Source of the DNA: Candidatus Uhrbacteria bacterium
GTDB lineage: Bacteria; Patescibacteriota; Patescibacteriia; UBA9934; GWF2-40-263
DNA length: 64,000 bases
Assembly: GCA_013204385.1 (NCBI GenBank)
Contig: JABMNY010000031.1
Coordinates: forward strand, 1,168 to 65,167
Reading direction: 5' to 3'
Positions 1 through 58,800 of this stretch are shown here, in pieces; positions within the stretch are counted from its first letter, which is position 1; each line of letters begins with the position of its first letter. Both the position numbers and the translations under genes were made by a program. The notes under the pieces are model-generated. The model was not told the origin of the DNA. It did no database searches and saw only the letters and a list, made by a program, of their open reading frames with translations.

Positions 1-544
1 AACTGAATTGAATGAACAATACAGTCATGGTCAGATCTTAAATGGGAACTACTTCTCATCTAGGATCCAACCATGTACTGGAGTGGTTCGATGTTTGCCT
101 CATGACAAGGAGGAGATGTCATAAGTCTTACATCAAACCGCTTCAGAACACGGATCGGCTGTTCCAAAATTTGCGATCTTGGCTTTCATGGGCACCCAGT
201 CATCTCTTCAACGTCCGTTTTAGGACGTCTTCAGAGTTGCCAGCCCATTCAAGCCAACCTCATCAAATTTTGAAACACCCTAACTGGTATGCACAATGTA
301 GATTTCTCTATCACTGTGACGGAGTAATCTATCACAAATAACGAACTTTGTCAAGAGTCATTGGCAAACCCTTTGTTGTTATCCATTGACTCACATTGCA
401 GGTTTTGATACCCTTCTGCCAGTTAGAATGTAACAAAAAGAGCCCATTTTGAGGGCCCTCTTACAGCGCTCAACACGCCTCCTCCTCGTGTTGAATCGCC
501 AGTGAGAAGGTTCTCACAATGGGTTTTTTGATTGTTTATAAGGA

Positions 545-572
545 AAAACGGGCCATAAGCCCGTTTTTAAAA
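545..572. terminator. GC hairpin (aaacgggc-cataa-gcccgttt) flanked by A and T runs; bidirectional rho-independent terminator at the 3' end of the 567..1211 gene
   Basis: Inverted repeat read directly; a T-run follows on the minus strand. Confidence 0.55.
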
Positions 573-1211
573 GTCTTCATGCACAAGTTGATGTCTTCGA
601 CGAATCCTCTCTGTTTGTAATATTGTAAAGATAATCCCGACAAATGCCCCCAAAACGAACCCTGAAAGGATATTTACTAAAATGTTTGGTTTTACAGGCC
701 AATTCGAGTTCAACGGCTCATCCACAAGACGAACGGAAACATCTCCACCTGACGTATACTCCCCTACTCTATCTGTTAAAACGAAGGCAATCGCGCGAAC
801 AAGTTGTTCTGCTTGCTCAATATCCTGATGATATGTCGTGATACTTAGAAGCCCTGATCCTCTCGAAACAGTTGCTTTCACCGTCTTCCCCCAGACCTTT
901 CTTTGTCTAGACGCATCGTCTGGAAAGATTGATTCATCAATACTGAAACCCGCATCCATCACTTGATCAAAGAAGGTACTGGTATAAATGAGCGTAGAAA
1001 GATTATCTGCAATGCGTTCTTCTGAACGTGACGCGGTATATGCATCCACTCCTGAACCCACATCCTGCAAAATCAACATACGTGTCGTTGAAGAATACTT
1101 GAGTGGTTGAACAAATGAGATAATGAGTGCGAGGACAAGACCCAAAAGTCCAAACATCGCGACCCCATGCCAGTTGTTAAAAATATCGCGCAAGTAATTT
1201 GGTTGAGACAT
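567..1211 (-). CDS. Wzz-like polysaccharide chain-length determinant, N-terminal domain type; bitopic membrane protein with TM segments at both ends
   Basis: 214-aa ORF with an N-terminal TM (GLLGLVLALIISFV), a C-terminal TM (ILVNILSGFVLGAFVGIIF) and a soluble middle; architecture and composition match the Wzz/Cap chain-length regulator family. Confidence 0.4.
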   Translation of the reverse strand: MSQPNYLRDIFNNWHGVAMFGLLGLVLALIISFVQPLKYSSTTRMLILQDVGSGVDAYTASRSEERIADNLSTLIYTSTFFDQVMDAGFSIDESIFPDDASRQRKVWGKTVKATVSRGSGLLSITTYHQDIEQAEQLVRAIAFVLTDRVGEYTSGGDVSVRLVDEPLNSNWPVKPNILVNILSGFVLGAFVGIIFTILQTERIRRRHQLVHEDF

Positions 1212-1228
1212 AGTACGTATAGTATATC

Positions 1229-2314
1229 TTAAAGTGTCAGTTCGCCCAATGTCACCACCACCTCTTGTGTCGATCCACCTCGATCAATCTCGATTCGAAT
1301 CTGATCCCCTGCGCCATAGTACGCAATCAAATCATCAAGCGTCTTTGTTTTATTAACTGGAACTCCTTCCACAGAAAGCAGTATGTCTCCTTCTAACAAT
1401 CCTGCGTTACTTCCCGCTCCCCCACGCTCAACAGCACGTACTCCATACAACACAAATCCTGTGTGATGGCCTCGTGCAAGATCTTCGGAAACACCAATGG
1501 CATGCGCAAGATCAATTCCTCGTACACCAAGTGCGGGATACGTAATGACAGAGACAGCTTCAAGGACTTGTGTGAACGCTCCTGAGAAGTGTTCAAATGG
1601 AATCACCTCAGTCCCTTCAACAGAGACTCTCGTAATCCCGACAAGCTCTCCATACACATTAAACACCGCGGAACCAGAAACAACTGATTCAGTCTGAGCG
1701 AGAATGATCCGACGCGAAGGAAGATCACTTACGCGCACAGCTTCTCCAAATTCAACCGAGCGCACGCGTGTAAACAAAAGGTCAGACTGCGAATTGACCA
1801 CAAAGACCTGATCTCCCGCCTGCACACCGTACCCCCCAGCAATATCAATCACAGGAACATTTGATGTTGCACAGTGAATGAACTCAAATCCAAACATCGG
1901 TTCACTCATCACTTCATCTACTTCGCACGAAAGCCCATTCCAACTGACCACGTCCCCCACTCGACCGGCTGAAGAGAGTGCCCATCCGTCCGACGTAAGA
2001 GCGATCACAGGAGTCGACAGCGCAAAAACAGACACACCCGATTCAACAAGCAACGACTGTTTCACAAGTGATCCGATCGTTGGGAGTGCTCGTTCTTCAA
2101 TACGATCAAGCGCATCTGCATAATCTTTTGGAAGGGCTCGAGGTCGTTCTTGCGTTAAGCGCAACGGCTCCGTGAGATCATTGAGTTCAAGCGCGTACTC
2201 AGAAAGATACGACGTTGTCAGCGCCGTTGTAATCACTCCTGCCGCTCCCCCAATCAAACAGGAGAATAGAATAATGCGAATTGTGTGTGGCCAAGTTGAT
2301 TTCTTCATACCCAT
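1229..2314 (-). CDS. HtrA-like trypsin-fold protease with a C-terminal PDZ domain; the active-site motif looks degenerate
   Basis: N-terminal TM, a chymotrypsin-fold core and a clear PDZ (LLEGDILLSVEGVPV...). The canonical GNSGGP around the Ser is replaced by SGSAVF. Confidence 0.5.
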   Translation of the reverse strand: MGMKKSTWPHTIRIILFSCLIGGAAGVITTALTTSYLSEYALELNDLTEPLRLTQERPRALPKDYADALDRIEERALPTIGSLVKQSLLVESGVSVFALSTPVIALTSDGWALSSAGRVGDVVSWNGLSCEVDEVMSEPMFGFEFIHCATSNVPVIDIAGGYGVQAGDQVFVVNSQSDLLFTRVRSVEFGEAVRVSDLPSRRIILAQTESVVSGSAVFNVYGELVGITRVSVEGTEVIPFEHFSGAFTQVLEAVSVITYPALGVRGIDLAHAIGVSEDLARGHHTGFVLYGVRAVERGGAGSNAGLLEGDILLSVEGVPVNKTKTLDDLIAYYGAGDQIRIEIDRGGSTQEVVVTLGELTL

Positions 2315-3069
2315 TGAGACGTTAAAGTGATCACAAAAGTCAGGACGACGAATACACTGATGTAGCGTCGCAGTACCTCTTTAGAAAGTTTATGGAGCGC
2401 ATGTGCACGTGAAAGCCCGAGGAACACATAGACTCCAAGCGCTAAGAACGCTGCATTCGTATAGAAGCCCGTTGGAAGAAACGAGAGTGCGGCAAACAGT
2501 TCTGTTGTGAGAAGGGCCCCTGCAAATGCATACGGTCGTGCGCGTATTGGATCAACCTTTCCAACCCATAACGTTCCATACACGATGAAAAAGAGAATTA
2601 AGAAAAACAACAACGAAAGAAACCAGAGTGGCGTTTGAAGAAACAAGGAGAGTCCGAAGCCAAGAATCGAAACGAAGAAGACGGAAAGAATATGGAGAAG
2701 TTGTGAAAGATATTCGAGTGTAAATGGCTGATAGTTAATGGGAAGATGTGTGAAGCTAAAAACATGTTCTACAAAAAAGAACAGGAGACCTACAACAATT
2801 AATGAAAGCAAGATTTTTGAAAGATTATTCTCGAGCAAGAAGAATGGACCAAAACTAGAGACAAGAAATAACAACGGGGTTCCCAACAAATGCCAAAATT
2901 GAAATGTCTTTACATGCCACCCAAGCAGTCGACCCAAAATAAGACCGACACAAAGCACGGTCAGAACAATGGTTACATAGGGATGCACCCATCCCAGAAA
3001 AAAAGAGGCAAATCCTAATCCGGACAAGAGCGCAACGGCAAAAGAGGATAATCGATAAAATAGAATCAT
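2305..3069 (-). CDS. polytopic integral membrane protein of unknown function
   Basis: 254 aa and almost entirely hydrophobic helices; overlaps upstream and downstream genes by a few nt, consistent with an operon. Confidence 0.45.
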   Translation of the reverse strand: MILFYRLSSFAVALLSGLGFASFFLGWVHPYVTIVLTVLCVGLILGRLLGWHVKTFQFWHLLGTPLLFLVSSFGPFFLLENNLSKILLSLIVVGLLFFFVEHVFSFTHLPINYQPFTLEYLSQLLHILSVFFVSILGFGLSLFLQTPLWFLSLLFFLILFFIVYGTLWVGKVDPIRARPYAFAGALLTTELFAALSFLPTGFYTNAAFLALGVYVFLGLSRAHALHKLSKEVLRRYISVFVVLTFVITLTSQWV

Positions 3070-3077
3070 AAGAAACC

Positions 3078-3830
3078 TTATTGGCCCTCGATCTCAACCA
3101 CCAGTTCTCCATCCACAACCAGCTCACCTGAAAGAACTTCAATAGATGAAATCTTCGCATAGCCAACCATAACCGCATTCACTCTGGCAAGCTCTTGTTC
3201 AAAAAATGGAAGGAAGGTTCGAAGAAACAGATGAGGTATTTCTAGCGAGCCCACAAACACCTGTTCTGGAGTCAGAACGAGTAATCCGTCCTGACTTGTA
3301 GCAGAGAATTGAATCGTGACTGCGGTCTGCTGTTTGGATCCATCAAGTGGTGTAAAAATCTCTATTCCAACGACTGGATCAATGACCGCTTGCGCACGCG
3401 AGACATCAATCATTCCCGTACTGTGCCCTTCAATCCACGAACGCAGAGAGGTTGTAAGCGATGCTTCTGTGAGCGCAACTTGAATAGATCGATCATTGAG
3501 AACCCCTCCCCCCTCATATAAGCGACGTGTAAGTGTTGTGGTAAACGTTTCTTGCAAAATTGTCTCTGCAGAAACACCTGGTTCAACAACGCGTGTAGGG
3601 TAAGGGACCTCATACGCATACTTGCTGAGTACTGGCACAACGACGATACCCATTTTTGCGATATTCCAAGCACCAAATAAAAGAAGACTTAGGAAAATCG
3701 TTAATAGAAGAAGCCCGATCTTCATTCCTATAGAACTCGGATTCCTTCGACGTCGCACTTCCGCGACAACATCTCCTTTTACATCGCTCACTTGTTTTTC
3801 AAGTGCGGCATTTTTTTCAACACGAGCCAT
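3078..3830 (-). CDS. membrane-anchored hypothetical protein with a single N-terminal TM
   Basis: 250-aa ORF in the same minus-strand operon; TM at GLLLLTIFLSLLLFGAW. Confidence 0.45.
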   Translation of the reverse strand: MARVEKNAALEKQVSDVKGDVVAEVRRRRNPSSIGMKIGLLLLTIFLSLLLFGAWNIAKMGIVVVPVLSKYAYEVPYPTRVVEPGVSAETILQETFTTTLTRRLYEGGGVLNDRSIQVALTEASLTTSLRSWIEGHSTGMIDVSRAQAVIDPVVGIEIFTPLDGSKQQTAVTIQFSATSQDGLLVLTPEQVFVGSLEIPHLFLRTFLPFFEQELARVNAVMVGYAKISSIEVLSGELVVDGELVVEIEGQ

Positions 3831-3833
3831 ACC

Positions 3834-4253
3834 CTACTTTCCCAACCATGAATACTCGGTCTTCAGAGTCTCAATAGACTGAATCGGTCCTTGTGTATCC
3901 CGATCTTCTGCTTTTAATCCTGATTGAAGTTGATTGAACGCAACAGCCAATCCGATATGTAAATCTTTGTATTGAGTAGGAACTCGCAAGGACAATACTC
4001 CTGCCAATGCTGTCTCTGTCGCAATGAGTTTATCTAAATCATCTGTCGCCGCAAAAAATCTCTCCTCAAATGTCGCAAGGATTTTTGATAGGTCAGATTG
4101 ATACGCATCAGCGTCCACTGGCACTACTTCTTCCATCTGGATAGTTGAACTCGATGGTTCATTTTGAAGAGTTTGATACATAAACCCTGCCAACCCTAAT
4201 GACAGAAGAATAACCGCGATCGGAAAGAGTGAGTGACGATGATAGTAACGCAT
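3834..4253 (-). CDS. membrane-anchored hypothetical protein
   Basis: 139-aa ORF with an N-terminal TM (PIAVILLSLGLAGFMY). Confidence 0.4.
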   Translation of the reverse strand: MRYYHRHSLFPIAVILLSLGLAGFMYQTLQNEPSSSTIQMEEVVPVDADAYQSDLSKILATFEERFFAATDDLDKLIATETALAGVLSLRVPTQYKDLHIGLAVAFNQLQSGLKAEDRDTQGPIQSIETLKTEYSWLGK

Positions 4254-4255
4254 AA

Positions 4256-5344
4256 TTATTCGGTTATATCTCTAAAAAGATCTTCTAATAAAACAACACT
4301 CATCATGGCAAGCGGAATGGCGAGAATCGCTCCGGCAAGTCCACCTGCTTTCAATCCAACAAGCAGAGCAAGAATACTGATAATGGGATTGAGTCCCGTT
4401 ACCTTCTGCATAATTTTAGGAACCAGCACATTATTTTCAATCTGCTGAATAACTAAATACAGAGCCACAACGGCAAACCCAATGAATGGCGCTTGCGCAA
4501 AGCCAATGATAAGTGCTGGGATGAGAGAGATGATTGGACCGACATACGGCACGACCTCAAGCAATCCTGCGATCAACGCAAGAAGAAGCGCATACTTCAC
4601 TCCTAAAAATGACAATCCAATAAATACGGCAATTCCTACAACGAACCCAAGAATAATTTGTCCCCGTAACCATTCCCCCATCTTACGAGACATCTTACTC
4701 ATGAGATGTGCCACATAAGGTTGATATTCAACCGGTGCAAGATTACGAAAATACTTCCGCATGCTCTCTTCCTCAACGACCATATAAAACGCGAGCACAA
4801 GCACGATAAACGTTGCTACCACACCTGCAACAACCCCTTTCACTGTTGAAAACGCTGTCCCCACCGTTCCAAAACTTCCTTGAAACGACGTAAGATAAGA
4901 GATGACATCATTGAGAATATCCGCATCTCCTGTAAACGGCGCAATTTGCGAAATCGAATCGACAATTTGTGTGTAATAAGAAGAAGAGTTCTCAATCAAC
5001 TGTGCACTTTGCTCAGTGATGATTGGAACAAATAGAAAGAGAAAAATCGTCGATAACGAAATCAGACACGTGTAGACAATTAACACTGCCAACCCACGTG
5101 GAATCTTTCGCTGTGCGAACCAAGACGCAAATGGTTCGATAAGCGCAGCTAGAAGTAATGAAGCGACAAAGATTGCTACGATATCGCGGACAAACCAGAG
5201 AAACCAAAGTCCAAGTACAATAAGCACCGCTTTCAAGAATGTAGACGTTGAAATACTCACGGACTGTGGAGGTAACATAGTATAAAAATTATACCATAGA
5301 TGCATTGACAAAACCCCATTTTTCGCGTACCATCGCTCAGACAA
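4256..5344 (-). CDS. AI-2E family transporter (PerM/YhhT, UPF0118)
   Basis: 362 aa, about 8 TM segments, with the family-typical C-terminal GxxxGP-containing helices (LLEVVPYVGPIISLIP). Confidence 0.7.
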   Translation of the reverse strand: MSERWYAKNGVLSMHLWYNFYTMLPPQSVSISTSTFLKAVLIVLGLWFLWFVRDIVAIFVASLLLAALIEPFASWFAQRKIPRGLAVLIVYTCLISLSTIFLFLFVPIITEQSAQLIENSSSYYTQIVDSISQIAPFTGDADILNDVISYLTSFQGSFGTVGTAFSTVKGVVAGVVATFIVLVLAFYMVVEEESMRKYFRNLAPVEYQPYVAHLMSKMSRKMGEWLRGQIILGFVVGIAVFIGLSFLGVKYALLLALIAGLLEVVPYVGPIISLIPALIIGFAQAPFIGFAVVALYLVIQQIENNVLVPKIMQKVTGLNPIISILALLVGLKAGGLAGAILAIPLAMMSVVLLEDLFRDITE

Positions 5345-5476
5345 GGATGTTCCTTTCTCATCGAAGAATCTGTTTTACAGATTCCACGTGATTCCGAGTC
5401 CCCATTTGATAAAAATGGATGCCTGGCAAAAGCAGAACGCCAATTTCCTCCCGAGTCCCGCTTTGTTAAAATAGAT

Positions 5477-5506
5477 GCCCGGCGGAGCCGGGTCCGGCTC
5501 CGCCGG
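5477..5506. repeat. near-perfect 13-bp-arm GC hairpin (ccggcggagccgg / ccggctccgccgg); its first 20 nt duplicate an internal tmRNA segment at 5886-5905
   Basis: Exact 20-nt match (cccggcggagccgggtccgg) between 5478-5497 and 5886-5905, read directly. Confidence 0.6.
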
Positions 5507-5561
5507 AAGATACGAATGAGCTGTGAACCGAAGCTCGAACAGATCGCTATTTTTACAAAGT

Positions 5562-5982
5562 GGGGCTGATCGGTATCGACGGGAGATCCTTCCAACCTGA
5601 TCAAGCCGTGTGGGTACGACTGCACGTAAATAAACTCGTACAAGACGACAACTGCAAACAACGTCATGGCAATGATCAAGAACGCTTTCAGTGTTCCTTC
5701 ATTCGCCCCTGTTCTCGCCTAAGGGTAAGAGAACCATTCGCCTTAGCTCGTCTGGGTGTTAAGTGTCGGGTGTTATAAATCCAGACTGGAGTGTGAGGTC
5801 ATCGATCTCTCACATTCGAGATTTGCGATCGATCCCTTGTTACGTATTACGCTACGTCTTAAGCGTAACATTGTAATCAGATGTACCCGGCGGAGCCGGG
5901 TCCGGTTAGCCGGAGATGTGCTTGGAAACGTCATGTTGCAAAGCCTTACCGCACGGGAGTTCGATTCTCCCCAGCTCCACCA
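5562..5982 (+). ncRNA. ssrA: tmRNA (ssrA), about 421 nt; candidate tag reading frame 5654-5719 (ANNVMAMIKNAFSVPSFAPVLA) with TAA stop at 5720-5722
   Basis: The 5' end GGGGCTGATCGGTATCGACGGG matches the canonical tmRNA start (GGGGCUGAUUCUGGAUUCGACGGG). The 3' end GGGAGTTCGATTCTCCCCAGCTCCACCA is a T-arm plus acceptor stem plus CCA. The divergently adjacent gene is smpB. Confidence 0.85.
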
Positions 5983-6020
5983 AGAAACGGCCGTCATTCA
6001 AATGACGGCCGTTTCTTATT
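5983..6020 (+). terminator. rho-independent terminator of ssrA
   Basis: Hairpin aacggccgtcatt-caa-aatgacggccgtt followed by tcttatt. Confidence 0.6.
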
Positions 6021-6059
6021 GGACTTGTGGGGATGAGAACTCCCGTATGGAGTTCGATG

Positions 6060-6300
6060 CGTGAGAGAGTGAGGGAGTAAATAAAAAGTCACCTGTGTTT
6101 GTGACTCTTTATTTACTCCCGAGCGAACGAACGCAATATTGGATTTGAAAAATCCAATATTCTCCCCAGCTCCAACAAAAACACGCCACCAATAGGTGAC
6201 GTGTTTTTGAGTTGCTCAGTACCAGTGTACTGAGCCGTGATGCATCGCTTATCAGCGATACAGGTCAAGGTGATGACCTAATGACCATCACCTCGCGTGA
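6060..6300. repeat. array of at least five consecutive strong hairpins/palindromes; includes a 19/20-bp stem at 6073-6120 and a partial copy of the tmRNA 3' end (ttctccccagctccaaca, 6157-6174)
   Basis: Inverted repeats read directly: gggagtaaataaaaagtcac/gtgactctttatttactccc; aatattggattt/aaatccaatatt; aacacgccac/gtgacgtgtt plus T5; gctcagtac/gtactgagc; atcgct/agcgat; ggtgatg/catcacc. Confidence 0.5.
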
Positions 6301-6308
6301 GACCTTGC

Positions 6309-6575
6309 CTACTCGATACCGTCCGCACGACGCCGAGCAGACTCGACGGATTGAGGATCCCAGCCTTGGTCAGGACCATCAGGATCAGACATGGCTAAGA
6401 TGCGGTCGGACAGATTGGAGCATGCCCGCTTGTACGCATAGCCCCCAAAGACAATGAAGAAGAGGATGAGTGACCCAAGACTGATCAATTCGACCAAGAC
6501 TGGATGAGAGTAGCTCACCAGGCGCAAGACGAGAATCCAACTGAGTACAAAGATCACCAAGAACGCACGATTCAT
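6309..6575 (-). CDS. small high-GC membrane protein (possible); start taken at the internal Met MNRAFLVIFVL
   Basis: ORF with two hydrophobic helices, downstream of the smpB terminator; could equally be a spurious ORF in GC-rich DNA. Confidence 0.2.
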   Translation of the reverse strand: MNRAFLVIFVLSWILVLRLVSYSHPVLVELISLGSLILFFIVFGGYAYKRACSNLSDRILAMSDPDGPDQGWDPQSVESARRRADGIE

Positions 6576-6635
6576 GTGTACCTCCACTCGTTTGAACATG
6601 CAGGGATTGCACGAAACAAAGAGAGCTGATGCTAC

Positions 6636-6663
6636 CCTCCACACATAAAAAAATCAAGGGAAC
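6636..6663 (-). terminator. smpB terminator (hairpin gggaacctagttccc then a T-run on the minus strand)
   Basis: Read directly; immediately 3' of the smpB stop codon. Confidence 0.55.
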
Positions 6664-7110
6664 CTAGTTCCCTTTCATTCTTTCTCTCATCTCTCTTTGA
6701 ACATCACGCTTCTTTACGGACTCGCGCTTCTCGTACTGTTTCTTTCCGCGCGCGACGGAGAACTCCAGTTTGACGATTCCCCCCTTTGTGTACAGGGAGA
6801 GTGGAATGAGTGTCAGTCCGTCTACTTGGCGTTTACCCACAAGTCGATTCAACTCCCGTTTATGCACAAGGATCTTTCTATCTTGATACGGGTCATACCC
6901 GTCTTGTGTCCCAGCTGGTTTATACGGGGCAATGTACGCTCCTTTCAACCAAAGTTCTCCCTTGTGGATATGTAGAAATGCCCCTTTAAGTTGGACTTGC
7001 CCTGCTTTTGCGGACTTCACTTCAGCCCCGGACAACTTCAAACCACCCTCGAGTGTTTCAAGGATTTCGTAATCGAATCGGGCTTTTTTGTTTATCGCTA
7101 AGGATGACAT
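6664..7110 (-). CDS. smpB: SsrA-binding protein SmpB
   Basis: 148 aa; the N-terminal KKARFDYEILE motif and basic C-terminal tail are typical of SmpB; adjacent to the tmRNA. Confidence 0.9.
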   Translation of the reverse strand: MSSLAINKKARFDYEILETLEGGLKLSGAEVKSAKAGQVQLKGAFLHIHKGELWLKGAYIAPYKPAGTQDGYDPYQDRKILVHKRELNRLVGKRQVDGLTLIPLSLYTKGGIVKLEFSVARGKKQYEKRESVKKRDVQREMRERMKGN

Positions 7111-9632: not shown

Positions 9633-9911
9633 TTACGAACGTCTGAAACGCACTAAGCGTTTGGCTAAAAACCGACGTCCAGCTGTTGATTTAAAATACT
9701 TCTCCCGTGCTCGTGCATCTCCTTCATCAAGACACGCTTCATAATACTCCAGATTAAATAGTCTTCGATATTTTGTAGAGATCACTCGACCATCTTGATG
9801 TTCCTGAAACCTTTTTTTTAAATCCCCAGTAAAACCGACATAGCGTAACCCATCCTTCTGACTTTTTAGGACGTACATATACCAAAAGGTCAAAGTAGTC
9901 TTACCGGGCAT
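9633..9911 (-). CDS. GIY-YIG nuclease-domain protein (YhbQ/UPF0213-like)
   Basis: YMYVLKSQKDGLRYVGFTGDLKKRFQEHQ ... REKYFKSTAGRRF is the GIY-YIG / URI-domain signature; start taken at MPGKTT. Confidence 0.65.
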   Translation of the reverse strand: MPGKTTLTFWYMYVLKSQKDGLRYVGFTGDLKKRFQEHQDGRVISTKYRRLFNLEYYEACLDEGDARAREKYFKSTAGRRFLAKRLVRFRRS

Positions 9912-10044
9912 AGAACAATATGATATCACAGCGAGCAGGATGGACCTGTTGACAAAATCGGGTTTTTTGCATACGATGGCGCGTCCGTCTCACAAACCAA
10001 CGGATTCTGGTCCTCTTGATCAGGAACACCCAAAGGAGTGCCTC

Positions 10045-16372: not shown

Positions 16373-16591
16373 AGATAATTAGCATAACAAAACAAGTCGC
16401 TTTCGCGACTTGTTTTGGCTACCGATATGAGCTCGGAACGAATGCTGTCGAGCTCAGCTCGACGACCTTCGCTTCTGTACTTGAGCGCGGATGATGTCGA
16501 GCATAGCGCGATCACCTTCGCTTCCATACTTCGGTTGAATCTCGGCAAAGCTGAGCTTTGCCTTCTGCACATTCAACCGAGCTCAGCTCGG

Positions 16592-16669
16592 TGGCGGACC
16601 GGAAGGGATTCGAACCCTCGATCTTCTCCGTGACAGGGAGACGTGTTAACCGGGCTACACCACCGGTCC
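16592..16669 (-). tRNA. tRNA-Asp (anticodon GTC), CCA encoded
   Basis: Manually folded: acceptor GGACCGG/CCGGTCC, D-stem GTGT/ACAC, anticodon stem TCTCC/GGAGA with loop CTGTCAC, T-arm GAGGG-TTCGAAT-CCCTT, discriminator G, CCA. Confidence 0.85.
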
Positions 16670-28311: not shown

Positions 28312-31300
28312 TTATTCGTAAGGACAGTACGTTATATTGAAGTCGCTGAATTCCATTGTTCCAGTTCCATAAAATGCATTTCTGAGTGGAATCACCTGTT
28401 CCGTTGACTGACAGGCAAACGCTGTTGGAAATGGAAGTTCGACATTTGAACCTGATTGAACTTCACTTGTTGTAGTATAGGTTCCATCGTCATCCGTTGT
28501 CGTAAATGTTACCCGTGTCCCAAGAATGGAATCCACAATCGCGGCATACATCTCAGCAATTTCGTCTGAGCTGGATGCTGAAAACGCATAATCTCCCTCA
28601 CAATCTCCAGTGGACGTCACGCTACTCCACGCACATTCATTACTAGACATATGTGCCATATATCCCTTTAGATCACTGTCTGTTGTGACCGCTGCTGAGT
28701 AAATGAGGATGTCACTTCTTGGCACACCTTCCGTAGATCCATCAATAAGTACATCGGAGATCTCAGCTACACACGCAGGAACATCCGCATAATATGATGT
28801 CGATGGATAATTAGACCATGCATATCCAGAACATCCGGTAGACGAACCAACATTGAAAGTGCTATTGAGACCTGGATCTCCATCAGATAAGAGAACTACA
28901 ATTTTTACTTCGGCTGTAGATGCGCTCAGGATAGAAATAGCTTCACTCAATCCGTTATACGTAGGTGTTCCATTTACTACAGAATCGGCATAATCATCAA
29001 GGATACTCATCATGCTTGACTCCGACGAATATAAACTCAATCCAATATCAATTTCCGCTCCATCATCTACAGAACAATCTTCATCTTCACAATCAGCATT
29101 ATACTGACAGACATTGCCATCATCTGACCCCCCACTACAAAGTCCTGTTGATCCAGAGAAGGAGACGAGGGAAATCTGCATGGTCGCATCCAGTGAACCG
29201 TACGCATCAAAAAGATCTGAAACAGCATCTCGCGTTGCTTCAACCACATAGTCAATTCTTCGAATTCCAACAGGAGCTCCAGAAGCTTCACATGTCGACC
29301 CATCACATGATGAAGAACTTGTACACGCATCTCCGTCATTGGTTCCCCCATTACAATACTGATTCGTGTCCACATCCCAATCCATACTTCCTGAAAGATC
29401 CGTGACGAATACAATATCAACATCTGGATGCTCCACATCTTCATCATTAATATCTGCTGTAATCGATGTTGCAACACTGCAGGCTGGAATATAGAGCGCT
29501 GCATTATCAGGAGAATCGCCTTCATCATTCAGATAACTATAAAGCCTAATGGACTCTCCAGGAGTAGCTCCTAACGATTCACTCACAACAAATAATCCTG
29601 TCGTCTCATAAGATGTCGGACATGATGATCCGCAATTATCAGCGCAAATTGGTGCCACACAATCTCCTCCACTACAGGAATTGACGTCATTTCCTGATGT
29701 AAGCTCAGAAACCGTTCCACTACTTGCGTACGTTGTGTAGTTGAGTGTGCAATATTCTCCATTTTCCGTTCCCCCATTACAAACTCCAAGCCATCTACAG
29801 GTATAGCCATCTGAATCTGTTGTGTCATATTCCTCTGAAGCACAGGAGCCCGTTATGCTTCCTGATGTTGAATCATAATTCTTAAACGCGGTTGAATACG
29901 TTCCGTCACACACTTCAGAACCATTCACAACCCCATCTCCACAATAGGCTCCAGAGGTCGTCTTATACTGACAGATTGTGTTGCAATAATTACATGTACT
30001 GCCATAGTCGGCTTCACATAGCACTCCATTTCCTCCATGACTATCAACTTCCCCATCATCACAAGACTCGACGCCAACATAGACATAATCATCTCCACAG
30101 ACGTTTTCTTCACAGGTATTCAAACACGAATCATTGTTTGAGGAGTTTCCATCGTCGCACGCTTCATCTCCTTCCACTGTTCCGTTTCCACAAGTCTGAT
30201 CTCCTCCAACAGGACCCGTCCAAGTTGTTGGCCATTCACAAGATGAAGAGCAGGTTCGATAGCGATAAAGGTCGTATGTATTTGTAGAACATGCTCCACC
30301 ATTATCTTCACAATCTTCATTTGTATCTGTTGAATCACACGTATCTCCCGCATCATCCCCACCAATACAAATCGTTCCTGAACCCGCTGCTTCATATCCT
30401 GTCCCACCACAGGTATCCGTTCCATCACAATCACTGGTGGTCGTACAAGTTGTCACTCCATCAGAACAGAGTTTTCCTTCCCAGGATTCATAATCCCCGT
30501 CACAAGATTCACTTCCATTTACAATTCCATCTCCGCAAGAGAGCCCAGGAAGCGTGCAATTATACGCACAGTTATCTCCACCCGCATCATACTGTCCGTT
30601 TGAAGTTGCGCACCATGGAGAAGCAGTTGTTCCTGTTGCATCTGGACCTATTGTTGCCCAACTACTTGATTCTAAAATCACACTTGCATACGTGCTCGTT
30701 GTTCCACAATCACATTGCTCAGAACCAGCTAAATATCCATCTCCACAGGAGAATGAACCTGTGGCAGTACAAGTGTCTCCACAATGTCCGTAGGTTCCGT
30801 TCAATGAGCCATCATCACAATCCTCACCTGTTTCCACGACACCATTTCCACAATCATAAGGGATGCATTCTGCTCCTGCAAATTCTGCTTCTGTTTGATC
30901 TTGAAAATCTGAACAATCTGATAAACAGGAAACGGCAATCACTCCACCAGAAGCAGTGCAAGCAATGGTCATTGTATCTCCAATCTCACAACCTTCTAAC
31001 GCTCCTTGTGTTCCATCTCCACATAACGCTGAGTCTCCCCAAGTGCTTCCATCACAGAAGACCGGTGTCAATGAAAATCCGCTCATGACAGAACTTGGCG
31101 CGTTTCCTGTTGGATACTCAACTGTAATCGTTCCCTCGTCTGTAGAATCCGCATCTATATCTTCGGTCCATTCATATTCTCCAGAAAGTTCAAGGGTTGC
31201 ATAAAGTTTGTACGCCTCGCCTCCGACACTCTGATAGCCATACACATGTGAATTCTCTGGACACATAAACGTTCCAGATTCTCCGTTCCAACAAGAAGCA

Positions 31301-34300
31301 GAATCGTATCCGTCTTCTGAGCAGTTAAAAAATTCGTTTATTGGATCCGTTGGAAGTGTCGTTCCAAGTTCATTTGCAAGTGAGGCATTCCAAGAGCTCC
31401 AGATAGAGTTTGAGATTGCAGGAATAAACGTCCCAGATTGCACATCAGGAAACCCTACAACACAGACCTCTGTTCCAGGACAATCCTCATCTGCGTCACA
31501 AGATTGACCTTGTGTTACGGCACAATGTCCATTCTCCTCTCCGTAGGAATCGAGTGATGAAGCAAGGGCAGTCACGTCAATAAGTCGTTGCATGTCGCGT
31601 GTCAATTTTGCTTTTTGTCCATCACAGACAATAGTCTCTTCCTCAAACTCTTCATAACAATCCCCATCCCATTCACAGCTCACATACTCCTCATCCTCAT
31701 TCAGCGCATACGTTCCATCAGATTCATCCTGACACAAATTGATATTTGTCACTTCAAGATTATTCGCGTTAAACCGCCAATTCGTAAGCAATTGAGAGAA
31801 GATCTCCTCTGATTCTGCACTCGCATTGTCGTTATAGGAAACAACATACATGTTTGGATAGATATCTCCTGACGATTCAATAAGGTTTGCAGCTGCAGCA
31901 TACAGCGTATTTCCAGACTCAACCGCTGAATAGGAATCAAGTTCCGTCTGTGTAAATGCTCCCGTAAACTGTTGTTCCTCCACCCAATCAGCAGGTGAGA
32001 GATAACTTGCATTTGGAAGGACACGTACTCCAATCGCATCACTTGATCCTTCAACTTTAAAGATAATTTCTTGTCGAATCACCGATGAATCAAATGATGT
32101 GACATCGATTGGATCACCGAGCGCAGGAAGATCATCTTCTGTTCCATCTTCTCCTGCATCGCGACAGTAATAAAATGAGAAATAACTTGGGAGTACATCC
32201 TCCACGTATGGAAAACTTAAGGTTTCTGAAGCAAGGGAAGGCCATGGATTCTCACACAAAAGAGCTCTCACTTCTAGCGTTCCGGAAACAGTTCTTGCAG
32301 GAGATGATTCATCTGCATCCGTAGTTTCATCGTCTTCAATCTCAGCAGTAGATGGGTCAAACAACTCATCATCTGTAATGGTTGCAATCGCAAGCACGAT
32401 TTCACTTCCGTCATTTCCACTTGCGGTAAAACTACGAGTTGTGTCTTCTGGCTCCTCTGTCTCTGGGGTTATAACATTTGTTGAAGCAGAGTCTGTAATC
32501 GAAGATGCCCAAGACCAATCCCAATCATAGAGTCCTTCAATTGGAGAGATTTCTTGATATCCTCCAGCGCGATATGTTTGTGGTGTCGCGACAAACGCAT
32601 GCTCTTCTCCTGTTGTACTGAAATACTGAATACTCAAAGATTCATACTCTTCTGCATCCACATCCCCTGTATCCTCAAGAAGCACGCGATCAAGATCACA
32701 AATCTCTTCACCGATCGCAAATTTTTGACTGAAATATTCATCTTCGCAATCATCATCAATACAGAGAGTTACATCGTTTTGACTCAAGACACCTGTCTTT
32801 TCACTATCTGTTGGAGTCTCGTCGCCCACAACAACCAACTTATAGATTGCATTTTCTTGTAATAATTCACTGAAACGAAGATACACACGGGAGGTTCCAT
32901 CACCATTTTGCACGATCGAATAACTCGTGACCGGCACGTAACAGGAAAAAGTACTTGACGCCTGAACCTCACGACCAAACAACCCAAGAACAACTGATTT
33001 TATAAAATGCCAAATCTTTCCTCCGAAGCTCACAGACTCTGAACCAAGAGAACCAATGTACCCGGACGGACAATCTGCAATGTCGCTCACCGTCTCTTGA
33101 GCTCCGTCTCCATCTGAGTCAACGGAAACAAGATCAATGTAGAGATTTGAATCAAATTCATCCTCTTGAATTGTTCCATCCCCATCTAAATCCTCGGACG
33201 TTCCAAAGGTTGTCTCATCCATCGATTCTGAAAATTCAATCCATACAGCACTATTTCGACAGAACCCCTCATCCGTTCCTGCAAGAAATGCCACAGAGTT
33301 ATCTGCGGGAGAAAGTTCTCCAATTGTTGGACGTTCATAACAACAGTTACTTTCCCCACATCCCAAACCAGCCGCTCCACACGAATTATCTGTGGTACAA
33401 GCACACTGTAATCGAAGCGTTGCCTCTCCTTCCACATCCTCATCCACAACAACAGAAATGGTCGAGATAGCGTATCCTGTGTCTTCGTTTACTTCCGTTG
33501 GAGCACCTGTTGCAACTTGCGCAACACCATAATCTCCTGCTGAGAACGAGGCTGTTGAAAGGGCGTCACAATCCTCTGCGGTTCCAACAATGCCGTCGCC
33601 ACAAAAAGATGGTGTCGCATACTCGTACGACGACCCAAGCCAGAGACAACTGCTTGAACATCCCTCGTCTCCGTCACATGCTTCTCCGGTGTCTACATCT
33701 CCATTTCCACAACAGTTTGCTGAATCACTGGTTGGACACACACTGCTTCCTTCGTACAAACACTCAGAAGAACATCCATCGTCTTCCGCAGAATAATCAC
33801 CTGGGTCACAGTCTTCTCCTTCGTCAATGGTGCCGTCTCCACAAATGGCATAGACATCGTCTTCTGAAGCAGATCCTTCTAAGAGGCAATTCCTTGAACA
33901 ACCATCACCACTTGATGTGTTTCCATCATCGCAATCCTCACCTCCAGTATTTACCACCCAATCCTGTGTTCCATCTCCGCAGACTGAACCGATCGACCGA
34001 GCTCCCTCATTTTTACATGAAGAGGAGCATCCATCACCACTCGTAATGTTTCCATCGTCACAATCTTCTCCTCCCGCAGAGGCTGACCAATCTCGTACTC
34101 CATTTCCACAACAACCTGAACCTGAACGTTCACAGCTATCGCCAGAGTAATAAACACACTCACTACTTGCGCCAGAACAAACACCTCCTGAGAGAGAACA
34201 AGCTCCTACACAAGAACCTGAATCACAGACCCCGTCGTTGGAACACGATGTGTCTGCGTCCTCAAAATCTTCACACAAACCAGCTTCCGAACAGCTTCTG

Positions 34301-37300
34301 CTTTCACATCCTTCGTCTCCTACACAGGCATTACCCACATCTGAAGCAGATGTGCACATAGCGCTTGCACACGTCTCATTACAGGATGCGTCGTTTGTAC
34401 ACTCCGCTCCTGAGGAACTACATGTTGCATCACACTGTACTGATCCTTCATTTAAACACACAGCAGAACATCCATCTCCAGCCTCTGTCCCGCCATCATC
34501 ACATTCTTCGGAATCTTCTACTGATCCATTTCCACAAACTCCGTCAGCGATCGTGACAGGAGCCCCCGCATTCAAGCACGCTGCTGTACAGTAACTTGCA
34601 ATATCAGATGTCAGCTCGATCGCTCCATTTGAAATCATGTAGGAAACGACCTCATCTGAATCCGTGGTACTGGTACTCACTCCATTTTGATTTTGCGCGT
34701 CAGTCGAAACCCATGCATCCCAAAGGTAAGATCCTGACTGAAGCGTTTGACCCTGATCTGAACAATCATCAGGGGCTCCTAATGCAAATGCATCAAACTC
34801 TGCGCGATCTCCCACATAGTAGAGCGTTGCGACAGATGGATCGAGTGTAAGCGAATCAACCGCACAACTCACCGCATCATTTTTTGTTCGAAACACCCAT
34901 GAGAACGCATCTTCAAAATACCGGTTATCATCCGTTCCGTAATTGGAACCTGAGTCAGAAAGAGCAACTCCCGTACAAGAATAAATTTCTGTCGCATCAA
35001 CAACTACGCGATACCAGGTATTGGGCTCTAAGGTCTCTCCATCATTAAAATTAATATAGAACTTCTGGGTTGAATCTTCTTCTGTCTCACAGGTATCGCC
35101 TGAAAAACTCACTGAGGCAACTTCTGCAAACTCCGTCAGTTCTGATGTTTCACACAATGAGTTGTCACATTCATATAATGTGACAGCGCCTGCTCCAATC
35201 GTTCCTCCATCCATCTTTGTATTAAATTCAGCCCAAGGCAACGCGTTCACACACGCGGTTGTACATTGTGGAAAGTAATCTTCAATTTCTGGATCGAGAA
35301 AATTAATCGTCAACTCCCCCTCACCCGATGGATCTCCTTCTGCGTCTGTAACGGTTGCGGTAATAATGGCTGGATCATCTGAAGTCGTTTCAGATTGTGC
35401 ATACACTTCATTCACACACACACCAGACCATTCAGATGTTGGAATTAACACATCGTCTGAAACAGAATCCCAATACAAGGTATATCCAGCACAACTCAAC
35501 GCAACACAACTATCGTTTTGTGCGGTCAGCTGAGCTGTGTAGTCAACGTATGCTTGTTCTGTTTGCGTATATTCCCCTGGACGCACATTCACGTCTCCCA
35601 CCTCACATAATTCCGTAGAGCTACTTGTTGTAAACTCCCAATCAAAATCTTCCGCGAGATATCCTCCATCTGCACTTTGGATTTGATCTCCTCCCTGAAG
35701 AGAGACCTGGTAATGTGTCCCCGCTTCAAACAACCCAGACGTAGGTTGCCAGGAAAATCCTGTTTCGTCTGGAGTAGGCATTGTGCCTTCGACAACCTCC
35801 CAAGTCTTACACTCTCCTTCACTTGCCAAGACACAAGACTCGTCCTCGTCTTCACAATCTCCAACATCGTCACACGCATCTCCTGAAAACGAGCAATAGC
35901 GGTCTTCTGCGGTTTCTTCTTCAAGGGTAAATTCTGAACTACAAGAACGAACAATAACCGTCGATGTCGTAAGTGTATCGCCGTTCATCGCCATATTAAA
36001 CTCAGCTTGCACACTTGCATTCAAACAAATATCGTCTGGGTCGCTCCATCCATCCCACGGAGATGGAGAAGTTCCATCTTCATCACAGGCAAGAATGACA
36101 CGCGGGGTATTTGGTGTAATCCCTGTCGTAATTTTAAATGCATAATGTGCTGACACTTCTTCTGTCTCGTCACAGGTTTCTGAACACGAACCATTAGAGC
36201 AACAACTCTCCCCCTCAGAACACAGGTCTGCATCCTCGCGACAATCTCCTACACTAAATGTCACAGAATTAGATGAATACCCACTTTCAGACTCTTCAAT
36301 ATAAACAGGTCCAGTTGCGGCTTCATCTGGAACGATCACAGATGAAATTTCATCATTTGCCCAAACCCCAAAAGTGGTCTCTTGTGTGGAATAAAAGACA
36401 ACCGTTCCATCATCAGACCCAAGATTCTCTCCGTAGAGCGTAATTTCAGATTCCGCTGGTCCAGCAGAAGGATCGATATTACAGATCGATGGTCCGGGCA
36501 CCTCATCAAGAACAACAAAATCCTCTGCTCCTGATGTATTTCCATCCGCGCGCTCAACAGTCAATGCGTGCGTGATTGCCTCAATCGCATCCTCATCTTC
36601 TGTAAGATACGTCTCAGGGACCTTCATGGTAATAGAGGTGTCATGCCAAAAATCTTCACCACAGACATCAGGAAAATCTGTATCTCCTAATGCAGTATAC
36701 CCAAGCGATTCGTTATCAAAGAAAACAGATCCAGTAGACGTTCCAAATCCCGTTCCATAAATCGTAATGTACTGACCTGCTGGCCCCCAATTGTCGGCAT
36801 CATCACATGTGGCCCCTTCACTACAATCATCATCAGATCCACAATGGGTATTATCATCTGAACATGCCTGCCAACCTGAATCAATAAAAGAAATGATTGG
36901 ACTAGAAGAACTTGAAGAGTCAGCTACGGTAAATGTAACTTTATTTGATCCAACACGGACTGATTCACAAGACCCTCCATCATCTCCACAATCGTCGTCA
37001 TCTCCACAGTACTCAAGTGTTTCAGAGCACCAAGACGCAGCACAACTCTCACCTGCATCTGTGTCACAATCTTCATCGTCTGTACAAGTATCTCCTGTAG
37101 CTACGTTATCTGTATCAACACACAGATAGTCCCCCGTAAACACTTGTCCACTATATCTTCCGGAATTCACATTTGGAACGGAAAGATTCAAGAGTGTGTC
37201 GGACCATGAAACATAGGTACTTGCTTCGTAGTTTGTAAAATAAAACGTAGAAGATCCTTGTGAATCTCCAAAACTGTTTCCGTACACTTCGATGGTAGAT

Positions 37301-58492: not shown

Positions 58493-58545
58493 ACAAAAAA
58501 ACACCCAAGCTTTGCTTGGGTGTTTTTGGTGCCGCGGGCGGGAAT
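58493..58545. repeat. 52-nt direct repeat copy A: a duplicate of the tRNA-Leu 3' end (18 nt) plus its downstream terminator hairpin; copy B is at 58681-58732
   Basis: aaaaaacacccaagctttgcttgggtgtttttggtgccgcgggcgggaat occurs twice (one A-run differs by 1 nt); the copies are about 135 bp apart. Confidence 0.8.
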
Positions 58546-58714
58546 ATGGGATTTTAACAAATCCCATATTGCACTCGTTCGTTCGGTACAAAAAATAAGG
58601 TTATAAATATTACTTATTTTTTGCACACTCACTCTCTCCTGCATCGAACCCGGGTGCGGATTCTCATCCTGCACCGCGGAACAAAAAACACCCAAGCTTT
58701 GCTTGGGTGTTTTT

Positions 58715-58800
58715 GGTGCCGCGGGCGGGAATCGAACCCGCACATGGTTACCCATACAGGATTTTGAGTCCTGCGCGTCTACCGGTTCCGCCACCGCGGC
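58715..58800 (-). tRNA. tRNA-Leu (anticodon CAA), class II with a long variable arm, CCA encoded
   Basis: Manually folded: acceptor GCCGCGG/CCGCGGC, anticodon stem CAGGA/TCCTG with loop CTCAAAA, T-arm GCGGG-TTCGATT-CCCGC, discriminator A. Confidence 0.8.

Follow-up and report, generated by a model that had tools for sequence, protein, structure and literature searches.

We examined a 64,000-nt stretch of DNA from Candidatus Uhrbacteria bacterium (contig JABMNY010000031.1, positions 1,168 to 65,167), called the window here, around its transfer-messenger RNA (tmRNA) gene, ssrA. The subject of this report is a small structured noncoding insertion, called the module, that lies behind ssrA and recurs behind a tRNA gene in the same genome. 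L numbers denote loci of relatives or co-occurring strains that were compared with the window. ARAGORN and the RF00023 covariance model agree on both ends of the one-piece tmRNA. Read from the sequence, its acceptor stem has 7 bp (GGGGCUG with CAGCUCC, including a G3-U70 pair), followed by the discriminator A and CCA, and its T-arm is GGGAG-TTCGATT-CTCCC. The product of the convergent smpB gene is named 'SsrA-binding protein SmpB [Candidatus Uhrbacteria bacterium]' at NCBI, and its nearest relatives come from Candidatus Uhrbacteria metagenome-assembled genomes, the best being 78 to 85% identical. An original prediction, made from the letters of the window alone, had called this a clear tmRNA with an adjacent smpB, and the two tmRNA models and the Pfam match of the partner gene agree. 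The ssrA-smpB locus is intact and working, and its oddity stems from small noncoding insertions that colonize it (Table 1).

Table 1. Positions of features in the 64,000-nt window
Feature	Position	Strand	Basis
Promoter-like site TTGACA-17-TACCAT	5305..5333	+	sole sigma-70-type site found in 5200-6700
5′ leader, ~228 nt, promoter to mature tmRNA 5′ end	5334..5561	+	leader transcription inferred
Leader motif CCGAGTCCCnnTTTGnTAAAA(T)rGATGCC, two copies	5394..5423 and 5451..5480	+	repeat comparison
GC-rich leader palindrome, perfect 13-bp stem	5478..5507	.	hairpin search
tmRNA (ssrA), one-piece, 421 nt	5562..5982	+	ARAGORN; Rfam RF00023, 98.5 bits, full length
Tag reading frame, 22 codons and stop, ANNVMAMIKNAFSVPSFAPVLA	5654..5722	+	ARAGORN and RF00023 agree on resume codon GCA at 5654
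GC palindromic insertion, 30 nt, between 3′ strand of pseudoknot PK4 and closing helix	5886..5915	+	extra relative to RF00023 model
Direct repeat copy 1: T-loop 3′ part, T-stem 3′ strand, acceptor 3′ strand, CCA of live gene	5964..5982	+	repeat search
New terminator hairpin, 17 bp, now ending tmRNA	5983..6018	+	hairpin and repeat search
Module copy A	6019..6177	+	covariance model matches at 172 and 158 bits
Copy A: acceptor-5′-like segment	6019-6028	+	block order
Copy A: inverted T-arm copy	6029-6044	+	block order
Copy A: T-stem 5′ strand and TTCGAT, direct copy of T-arm 5′ half	6049-6058	+	block order
Copy A: constant core with hairpins, stems 6073-6120 and 6135-6161	6059-6158	+	block order
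Copy A: displaced original 3′ end	6159-6177	+	block order
153-nt hairpin-array segment: terminator, three hairpins, last 15 nt of small membrane gene	6172..6324	.	L172, L174, L176
Ancestral bidirectional terminator, common to tmRNA and convergent smpB operon	6176..6209	.	directly after CCA in L005, L006; motif ACAAAAACACGCCAC
Small membrane protein gene, 88 aa from ATG, downstream of smpB	6309..6575	−	ORF (open reading frame) listing
smpB	6664..7110	−	Pfam SmpB match; convergent with tmRNA
Module copy B between two 50-nt direct repeats	58496..58732, module 58681-58527	−	covariance model matches
tRNA-Leu(CAA), host of copy B, T-loop TTCGATT	58714..58800	−	tRNA calls

The 3′ end of ssrA is present twice. 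The downstream repeat, ATTCTCCCCAGCTCCA(A)CA, matches the end of the live gene at 21 of 23 positions; in the light of the relatives, the mismatch is best explained by the loss of 3 nt, CCA. Four relatives (L005, L006, L008 and L180) have an empty site in which the CCA directly abuts a bidirectional terminator, ACAAAAACACGCCAC...GTGGTGTGTTTTTG; in L005 the hairpin GCTCAGT...ACTGAGC comes after it. In the window, this ancestral terminator and the hairpin at 6214-6235 come after the downstream repeat, not after the live gene end. It follows that the original end is the downstream repeat, displaced by the inserted DNA of 5983-6158. The original end and its terminator now lie ~195 nt downstream, and the live gene keeps an intact 3′ end and has gained a new terminator. 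The original prediction had seen in this near-copy the arrangement left by integration, and an insertion with end duplication is borne out by the comparison of empty and filled sites. A homologous module fills the site in the window, L001, L007 and L177, and a truncated one in L179. The repeat is GATTCTCCCCAGCTCCACCA with a spacing of 212 nt in L001 (identical to L092) and a perfect 18-mer with a spacing of 169 nt in L007; the L177 copy adjoins a contig end, and in L179 a deletion cuts the module and fuses the remnant to smpB. In L101 the version is degenerate, its first terminator being homologous to that of the window. The insert is 176 to 193 nt long and noncoding.

With its homologs in L001, L007, L177 and L179, copy A is known from five genomes. 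The inverted T-arm copy and the direct T-arm half within it, like the second module, had escaped the original prediction. The window, L001 and L007 share a series of blocks that begins with GGGAG-ATGAGAA-CTCCC, an inverted T-arm copy in which the central GAT is replaced. It continues with a 3- to 4-nt spacer, GGAGTTCGAT-GC, nGAGnGAGnGAG and a variable AT-rich hairpin, and ends with TYCCGAGYGAACGAnnGC, a hairpin of changed sequence and kept pairing, and ATT-CTCCC-CAGCTCC-ACCA. Copy A of the window folds with a minimum free energy of −71.4 kcal/mol (z = −9.0), and every copy folded alone does so alike, with an acceptor-like outer stem and a T-stem-like closing helix around three arms and a free NCCA tail. 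A first covariance model was built from three tmRNA-linked copies, and a second model (R2) was also used. With six copies aligned to the model, 91.8% of the cells were paired and both sides had changed in 13 of 33 pairs; eight compensated pairs lie in core helices that are not derived from the host gene. None of 500 shuffles reached any of the five measures, and slid controls gave 33 to 53% pairing with at most two pairs changed on both sides. The insert is thus a conserved, strongly folded and covarying module.

It belongs to no Rfam family: an E-value scan of 5200-6700 returned the tmRNA and sub-threshold chance matches only, and a gathering-threshold scan of the whole window returned the tmRNA and four tRNAs only. 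A ribozyme or other known RNA was rejected on the lack of an Rfam match. A tandem duplicate of the tmRNA body was also rejected, the alignment of the module interior to the tmRNA being not above shuffles (p ~0.1 to 0.3), and as DNA the module had no match in phage records.

The second copy, copy B, sits immediately 3′ of tRNA-Leu(CAA), 52 kb from the tmRNA. It matches over its full length, at 102 bits with the first model and 136 bits with the second (E ~1e-25 to 1e-32). The order on the minus strand is tRNA-Leu ...GCGGGTTCGATTCCCGCCCGCGGCACCA, terminator T1, module, ATTCCCGCCCGCGGCACCA, terminator T1′. The flanking repeats (58732-58683 and 58545-58496, spacing 187 nt) are perfect over 50 nt, each running from the T-loop 3′ part to CCA and on through the whole terminator, and since they are perfect, copy B is recent. 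Copies A and B have in common the constant pieces ATGAGAA, TTCGAT-GC-nGGAGAGAGTGAG, CCGAACGAACGAnnGCAATATGGGATTT and AAATCCCATAT. Every host-like piece of copy A is tRNA-Leu-like in copy B, with the core unchanged. All four helix-forming arms are re-matched in this way: the acceptor-5′-like segment, the inverted T-arm copy, the T-stem 5′ strand with TTCGAT, and the T-loop 3′ part through CCA. The left arm of copy B holds CCGCGGTG, which equals tRNA positions 2 to 9, and CGGGTTCGAT. Read as its reverse complement, the inverted unit of copy A is GGGAGTTC-TCA-TCTCCC in L001 and L007, compared with GGGAGTTC-GAT-TCTCCC in the host, and the window's own unit is shorter by one base (GGGAGTTC-TCA-TCCCC). 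The corresponding unit of copy B is GCGGATTC-TCA-TCCTGC, compared with GCGGGTTC-GAT-TCCCGC in its host. Core identity is 0.73 between copies A and B and 0.62 to 0.70 between copy A and the orthologous tmRNA-linked copies.

Within the window the module is found only at the two genes with a TTCGATT T-loop. The tRNA-Met genes (TTCGAAT and TTCAAAT) and the tRNA-Asp gene (TTCGAAT) have none. TTCGAT lies directly 5′ of the core in five of the six copies, the sixth, in L179, having TTCTAT.

The ends of tRNA and tmRNA genes are classic landing sites of bacterial islands. Our preferred reading, in which we place a little less than even confidence, is that the module is a miniature nonautonomous mobile element aimed at the TTCGAT/T T-loops of tRNA-like genes. 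An element of ~160 nt (6019-6177), with its own terminator hairpin in front (5983-6018), would insert at the end of a tRNA-like gene, moved in trans by an enzyme encoded elsewhere. Insertion would duplicate the host 3′ end, along with the terminator in the young copy, and because that end is duplicated, essential genes would survive. We infer from this picture that the module is mobile, that it is mobilized in trans and that its target is specific. It is possible, though we lean against it, that the module represents an undescribed class of miniature element in bacteria of the candidate phyla radiation (CPR), one that homes to the T-loop TTCGAT/T, has its arms rebuilt for each host and uses its fold as the recombination substrate. 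The arms would then be copied, directly and inverted, from the acceptor stem and T-arm of the new host at each new site. A templated or folded single-strand mechanism might do this, with the tRNA-minihelix-like fold as recombination substrate; integron attC sites and the phage attachment site (attP) of CTX phage would serve as analogies only for such a mechanism, which would protect essential genes through the duplication of their 3′ ends.

Several points weigh against a mobile element. Neither simple cut-and-paste nor Campbell-type integration explains the two-sided host-matched arms and the interleaved constant pieces. No gene for an integrase, a transposase or a reverse transcriptase was found: the genes within ~5 kb are housekeeping or orphan genes, 20 further window ORFs were negative for recombinases, and no recombinase was among the best 25 families in a Pfam scan of 53 ORFs. 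The lack of an integrase had been predicted, and it holds for the neighboring genes and the tested window ORFs. There are two copies in 64 kb and none in ~870 kb of related loci except at the tmRNA, a low copy number. No empty tRNA-Leu site was obtained from relatives, L184 beginning inside the tRNA 3′ end. Copies A and B are in opposite orientations on one replichore, and as the GC skew keeps one sign throughout the window, they are not co-oriented with replication. Finally, the six-copy alignment used for covariation had been fitted to the covariance model.

To our knowledge, the elements known to land at the ends of tRNA and tmRNA genes have an integrase and a fixed attP. The module has the direct repeat of the gene 3′ end and the empty sites in relatives expected of an integrase island, and no tyrosine or serine integrase gene lies inside it. 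The ssrA-specific genomic islands (ssrA-GIs) of Dehalococcoides have 20-bp ssrA repeats (McMurdie et al. 2011, PMC3146451), and tmRNA gene fragments are formed by island integration (Hudson, Lau and Williams 2014, PMC4131195); both papers discuss recombinase-less elements flanked by att repeats. As at those islands, the last 19 to 20 nt of ssrA are directly repeated here, the live gene is restored, the original end is displaced and the site is hypervariable among relatives. Unlike them, the present insert is 170 to 210 nt long, noncoding and strongly structured, with no integrase module; its core also occurs at tRNA-Leu with arms matched to that gene (inverted T-arm, acceptor-5′-like segment), and the repeat of the young copy takes in the host terminator. 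It keeps attL/attR-type repeats without recombination or transfer genes, as a cis-mobilizable element (CIME) does. In geometry it behaves like a cis-mobilizable element, an ssrA or tRNA island of which only the att sites are left, and it lacks the integrase of an island.

Nothing relevant came from pattern scans of viral contigs, and no related integrase-bearing element was found. The 27-nt tmRNA 3′ end gave 11 matches, all of them phage-encoded permuted tmRNAs that share that end, and no attP. Of three scans with module patterns, one gave 0 matches and two gave one each (L185 and L186). L185 was rejected for want of a covariance model match, and L186, at 13 bits inside a protein-coding repeat, as chance. 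The ssrA flanks of relatives gave no intact island of the kind expected by the original prediction; the candidate, a 4.6-kb interval between tmRNA and smpB in L007, holds pyrE- and pyrF-like and orphan ORFs, with no integrase seen.

The module does not have the form of a miniature inverted-repeat transposable element (MITE), as the two ends of its core (GCGTGAGAG... and ...AAATCCAATAT) do not form inverted repeats, and its flanking repeats are 19 to 50 nt of host gene end, in contrast to the short target-site duplication of a MITE. The miniatures of IS200/IS605 elements, palindrome-associated transposable elements (PATEs), have no terminal inverted repeats, carry two conserved hairpins and insert 3′ of a fixed short sequence; the target of ISDra2 is TTGAT. 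The module is similar in lacking terminal inverted repeats, in having two hairpins, in sitting directly 3′ of TTCGAT, which recalls TTGAT, and in a structure conservation of the sort expected for single-strand recognition. At the right junction of the core, the overlap may be AT or GAT. It differs in that no TnpA or TnpB was found (nor Y1_Tnp among the tested window ORFs), in that it has host-matched arms upstream of the insertion point, in that it always lies in a duplicated gene end, and in the opposite orientations of the two copies relative to replication, where IS200/IS605 elements would share one. The module and the DNA beside it also have no coding capacity; an IS110-type element would carry a DEDD recombinase gene adjoining its structured bridge RNA.

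The original prediction had taken the locus for the scar of an excised or decayed island. An integrase-bearing ssrA island would have been deleted down to ~180 nt, inert apart from its terminator, and the geometry is indeed that of known ssrA islands (PMC3146451). Erosion of the module by deletion is seen in L179, and L003, L093, L097 and L098 have other fillings at this site. We nevertheless find a scar improbable: the module is conserved and covarying and recurs, host-matched, behind tRNA-Leu. The same core stands at a second, unrelated host gene with re-matched arms, and two islands are unlikely to decay alike. The core helices keep their pairing through compensatory changes, unlike neutral scars, and the 50-nt repeat of copy B includes the host's own terminator, which a foreign attP would not carry. 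That perfect tRNA-Leu duplication also reflects a DNA event and not convergent adaptation, which bears on a second alternative, that the module serves the host as an RNA or cis element. It would be a tRNA-minihelix mimic made by read-through of the first terminator, with an acceptor-like stem on a T-stem-like helix, a 3′ NCCA tail and a three-way junction replacing the T-loop. Between convergent units it might act in processing, termination or insulation or as a decoy, its arms matching the host to mimic it or pair with it. The closing helix, acceptor-like and T-stem-like, and the free CCA tail are common to all copies, compensatory changes are present, the module is kept across genomes with 70 to 85% SmpB identity, and different long hairpin structures stand at the same place in L181, L182 and L097. 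Set against this, the module lies downstream of a strong terminator, and a search for a promoter found none for it. The module is also dispensable, because it is missing in the close relatives L005, L006, L008 and L180 and truncated in L179, and the acceptor-like stem of the window has A3-U70, not G3-U70. We regard this host-function proposal as unlikely.

Local duplication without any dedicated element is likewise doubtful. Replication slippage or template switching at the T-arm palindrome and terminator hairpins would have made partial duplicates of the gene end, direct and inverted, and the core would have spread between the loci by microhomology-mediated copying via GTTCGAT and ATTC. Favorable to it are the inverted and direct T-arm copies adjoining strong palindromes, the host terminator within the tRNA-Leu repeat, the genome's DprA, which makes DNA uptake and recombination plausible, and the tmRNA cassette inverted in place between close relatives, which shows local rearrangement. 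Yet the 7-nt ATGAGAA and the ~100-nt core are split by host-specific pieces, so that at least two coordinated template switches in the same register would have been needed at both loci. Both hosts also have the same insertion point and orientation, and the core structure is conserved.

If the mobile-element reading is right, a structured noncoding unit of ~110 to 130 nt, seen at two different tRNA-like genes with its arms matched to each, would represent a new means of occupying such gene ends, and one of the few types of mobile element described in the reduced genomes of Patescibacteria. The covariance model of the module can be used for a census, and annotators may wish to note that a pseudo-tRNA or tmRNA fragment in these genomes can be part of such a module.

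Other sequences occupy the same ssrA site elsewhere: an orphan ORF in L003, AGCTCAGCT-type palindromes in L093 and L097, a GIY-YIG ORF in L098 and long inverted repeats in L181 and L182. The last are imperfect, ~115 to 130 nt long and unrelated in sequence to the module, and they lie directly after the tmRNA CCA (L181:5081-5200, L182:4380-4510). In L098 the GIY-YIG homolog is inserted immediately 3′ of the tmRNA, at ~300 to 760 nt from it, and that tmRNA ends ...CTCCAGCC without an encoded CCA; the window has a gene for a small stand-alone GIY-YIG protein (9633-9929, minus strand) 2.5 kb from smpB. Besides the module, the AGCTCAGCT palindromes form another type of element that flanks tRNA-like genes on the 3′ side. 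They are found directly after the tRNA-Asp CCA in the window (16520-16594, minus strand; CCGAGCTGAGCTCGG ... GGCAAAGCTCAGCTTTGCC), after the tmRNA CCA in L093 and L097 and after the pseudo-3′ end in L101.

The window has 21 hairpins with stems of at least 11 bp, and five of them fall in 5479-6209. The array is composite: the new terminator, the module hairpins (6037-6055, 6073-6120 and 6135-6161), the ancestral terminator and three hairpins in the 3′ untranslated region of the smpB operon (6214-6235, 6244-6259 and 6269-6292). The first and last of these three are kept in relatives with compensatory changes. The dense hairpin packing that had been taken as a sign of integration is real, and a sign of integration only in part, several of the hairpins being conserved terminators or 3′ untranslated hairpins of the smpB operon. 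At the position of the new terminator, L001, L007 and L179 have hairpins of different sequence, and L101 has the homologous one.

Contigs from Joint Genome Institute (JGI) sample 3300032736 and Logan run SRR28106091 are 99.9 to 100% identical to the window, and the strain with the 993-nt island described below is 99.98% identical. L174 equals window 1-6241. L172 equals window 11110-6172 followed by a 993-nt segment (L172:4940-5932) that ends in a second copy of 6280-6324, and the Logan unitig L176 consists of 6295-6324, the island and 6172-6201. These junctions therefore place the 153-nt hairpin-array segment on both sides of a 993-nt island. The alternatives are an island between two 153-nt copies, a 1146-nt circle or a strain mixture. 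The window is the island-free form, and the two versions differ by one single-nucleotide polymorphism (SNP; position 6242), L174 stopping one base before it. The island carries its own promoter-like box and an orphan ORF of 227 to 245 aa (P0001), which matched no Pfam or PHROG family and no phage or plasmid, and its cluster stands alone among 5.8 billion proteins. Its AlphaFold model is unusable (mean confidence score, pLDDT, 37.6). These strain-level changes next to the module suggest ongoing plasticity. Independent assemblies repeatedly break at window positions 5504, 6241 and 6295, at the starts of L004 and L184 and at the end of L177. The breaks fall exactly on the leader palindrome, the array of hairpins, the module and the 3′ end of tRNA-Leu, as would fit repeats or strain heterogeneity there.

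The tmRNA body carries a small insertion of another kind. In an alignment of seven orthologs, the 30-nt GC palindrome is missing from the tmRNAs of the six relatives and is private to the window genome. An exact 20-mer, CCCGGCGGAGCCGGGTCCGG, is shared by 5478-5497 in the leader and 5886-5905 in the tmRNA. Chance similarity does not account for it, with 0 matches expected in shuffles and a 45-nt alignment, flanks included, that scores 48 compared with a shuffle maximum of 27. The perfect 13-bp leader palindrome spans 5479-5506 and is missing from the orthologous L001 leader. One of only three differences over 6.2 kb between L174 and the window, the SNP G5893T, falls inside the 30-nt insertion and adds a T-A pair to its hairpin. 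The repeat and hairpin of the original prediction are thus real; its self-duplication is instead an independent, genome-specific palindromic insertion, with a leader copy, that the RNA tolerates. L003 has an independent 31-nt GC double hairpin insertion in the PK2/PK3 region (L003:1775-1805, minus strand), and longer tmRNAs occur in other Uhrbacteria (436 nt at L010:6449-6884 and 468 nt at L016:6444-6911); small hairpin insertions in tmRNA seem to be recurrent in the clade. Rickettsia palindromic elements (RPEs) sit inside genes, including the tmRNA gene of Rickettsia bellii (PMC1458961). The tolerance of a short palindromic insertion within a tmRNA gene is common to them and to the insertions of the window and L003. 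RPEs differ in being 100 to 150 nt long with hundreds of copies; here a 30-nt unit has two copies in 64 kb, in the same transcript.

The tag frame, GCA(5654)...GCC-TAA, was not placed elsewhere by either tmRNA model. Its orthologs at 18 loci have exactly 22 codons, and among 16 distinct DNA versions there were 8, 4 and 17 variable sites at codon positions 1, 2 and 3, with most residue replacements conservative. More distant Uhrbacteria and neighboring CPR groups have tags of 19 to 27 residues in the same style. Judged by this sequence variation, the 22-residue tag is real, translated and a lineage trait. As it is conserved clade-wide with 3-periodic variation, it is not a symptom of rearrangement; the length reported in the original prediction stands and is normal for the clade, and its use as a sign of integration does not stand. 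Mycoplasma tmRNA tags of ~27 residues are reportedly directed to Lon, as Gur and Sauer are said to have found in 2008. Those tags, like the ones in Uhrbacteria, are about twice the E. coli length and conserved within a reduced-genome lineage; the Uhrbacteria tag differs in its unrelated sequence, ending PVLA. The clade-wide tag of 22 to 27 residues is a separate lead on the protease that reads tmRNA tags in CPR bacteria.

The promoter-like box, ATTGACAAAAC..., is kept upstream of the tmRNA in all relatives. Its distance to the mature 5′ end is ~8 to 10 nt in L003, L006 and L180 and ~230 nt in the window and L001, and leader lengths among relatives range from ~8 to ~240 nt. The tandem imperfect repeats noticed in the leader were found again as two copies of a motif (consensus CCGAGTCCCnnTTTGnTAAAATrGATG) that lie 57 nt apart, with 86% identity over 21 nt, and the motif recurs in relatives' leaders. 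There are two copies in the window and L001, one in L005, L093 and L097 and none in L003, L006 and L180. The motif resembles the promoter box (ATTGACAAAAC compared with TTTGATAAAAA) and has TGnTAAAAT-like strings; judged by this resemblance, the repeats might be extra promoters.

The tmRNA is convergent with smpB in the window clade and co-directional with it, immediately downstream, in other relatives. Between close relatives with collinear flanks, the tmRNA and its terminator are inverted in place (L012:6442-6873 compared with L013:6488-6922, and L014 compared with L103). The inverted piece is 94 to 97% identical between relatives, and L100, L181 and L182 belong to the same comparison. The small membrane protein encoded downstream of smpB matched no Pfam or PHROG family; it has orthologs in L001, L003, L004, L005 and L097 and none in L006, L008, L179 and L180. 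Farther away, a single ORF of 3554 aa (28312-38976, minus strand) has large neighboring ORFs with bacterial TSP3 repeats and resembles the giant surface proteins that CPR genomes commonly encode.

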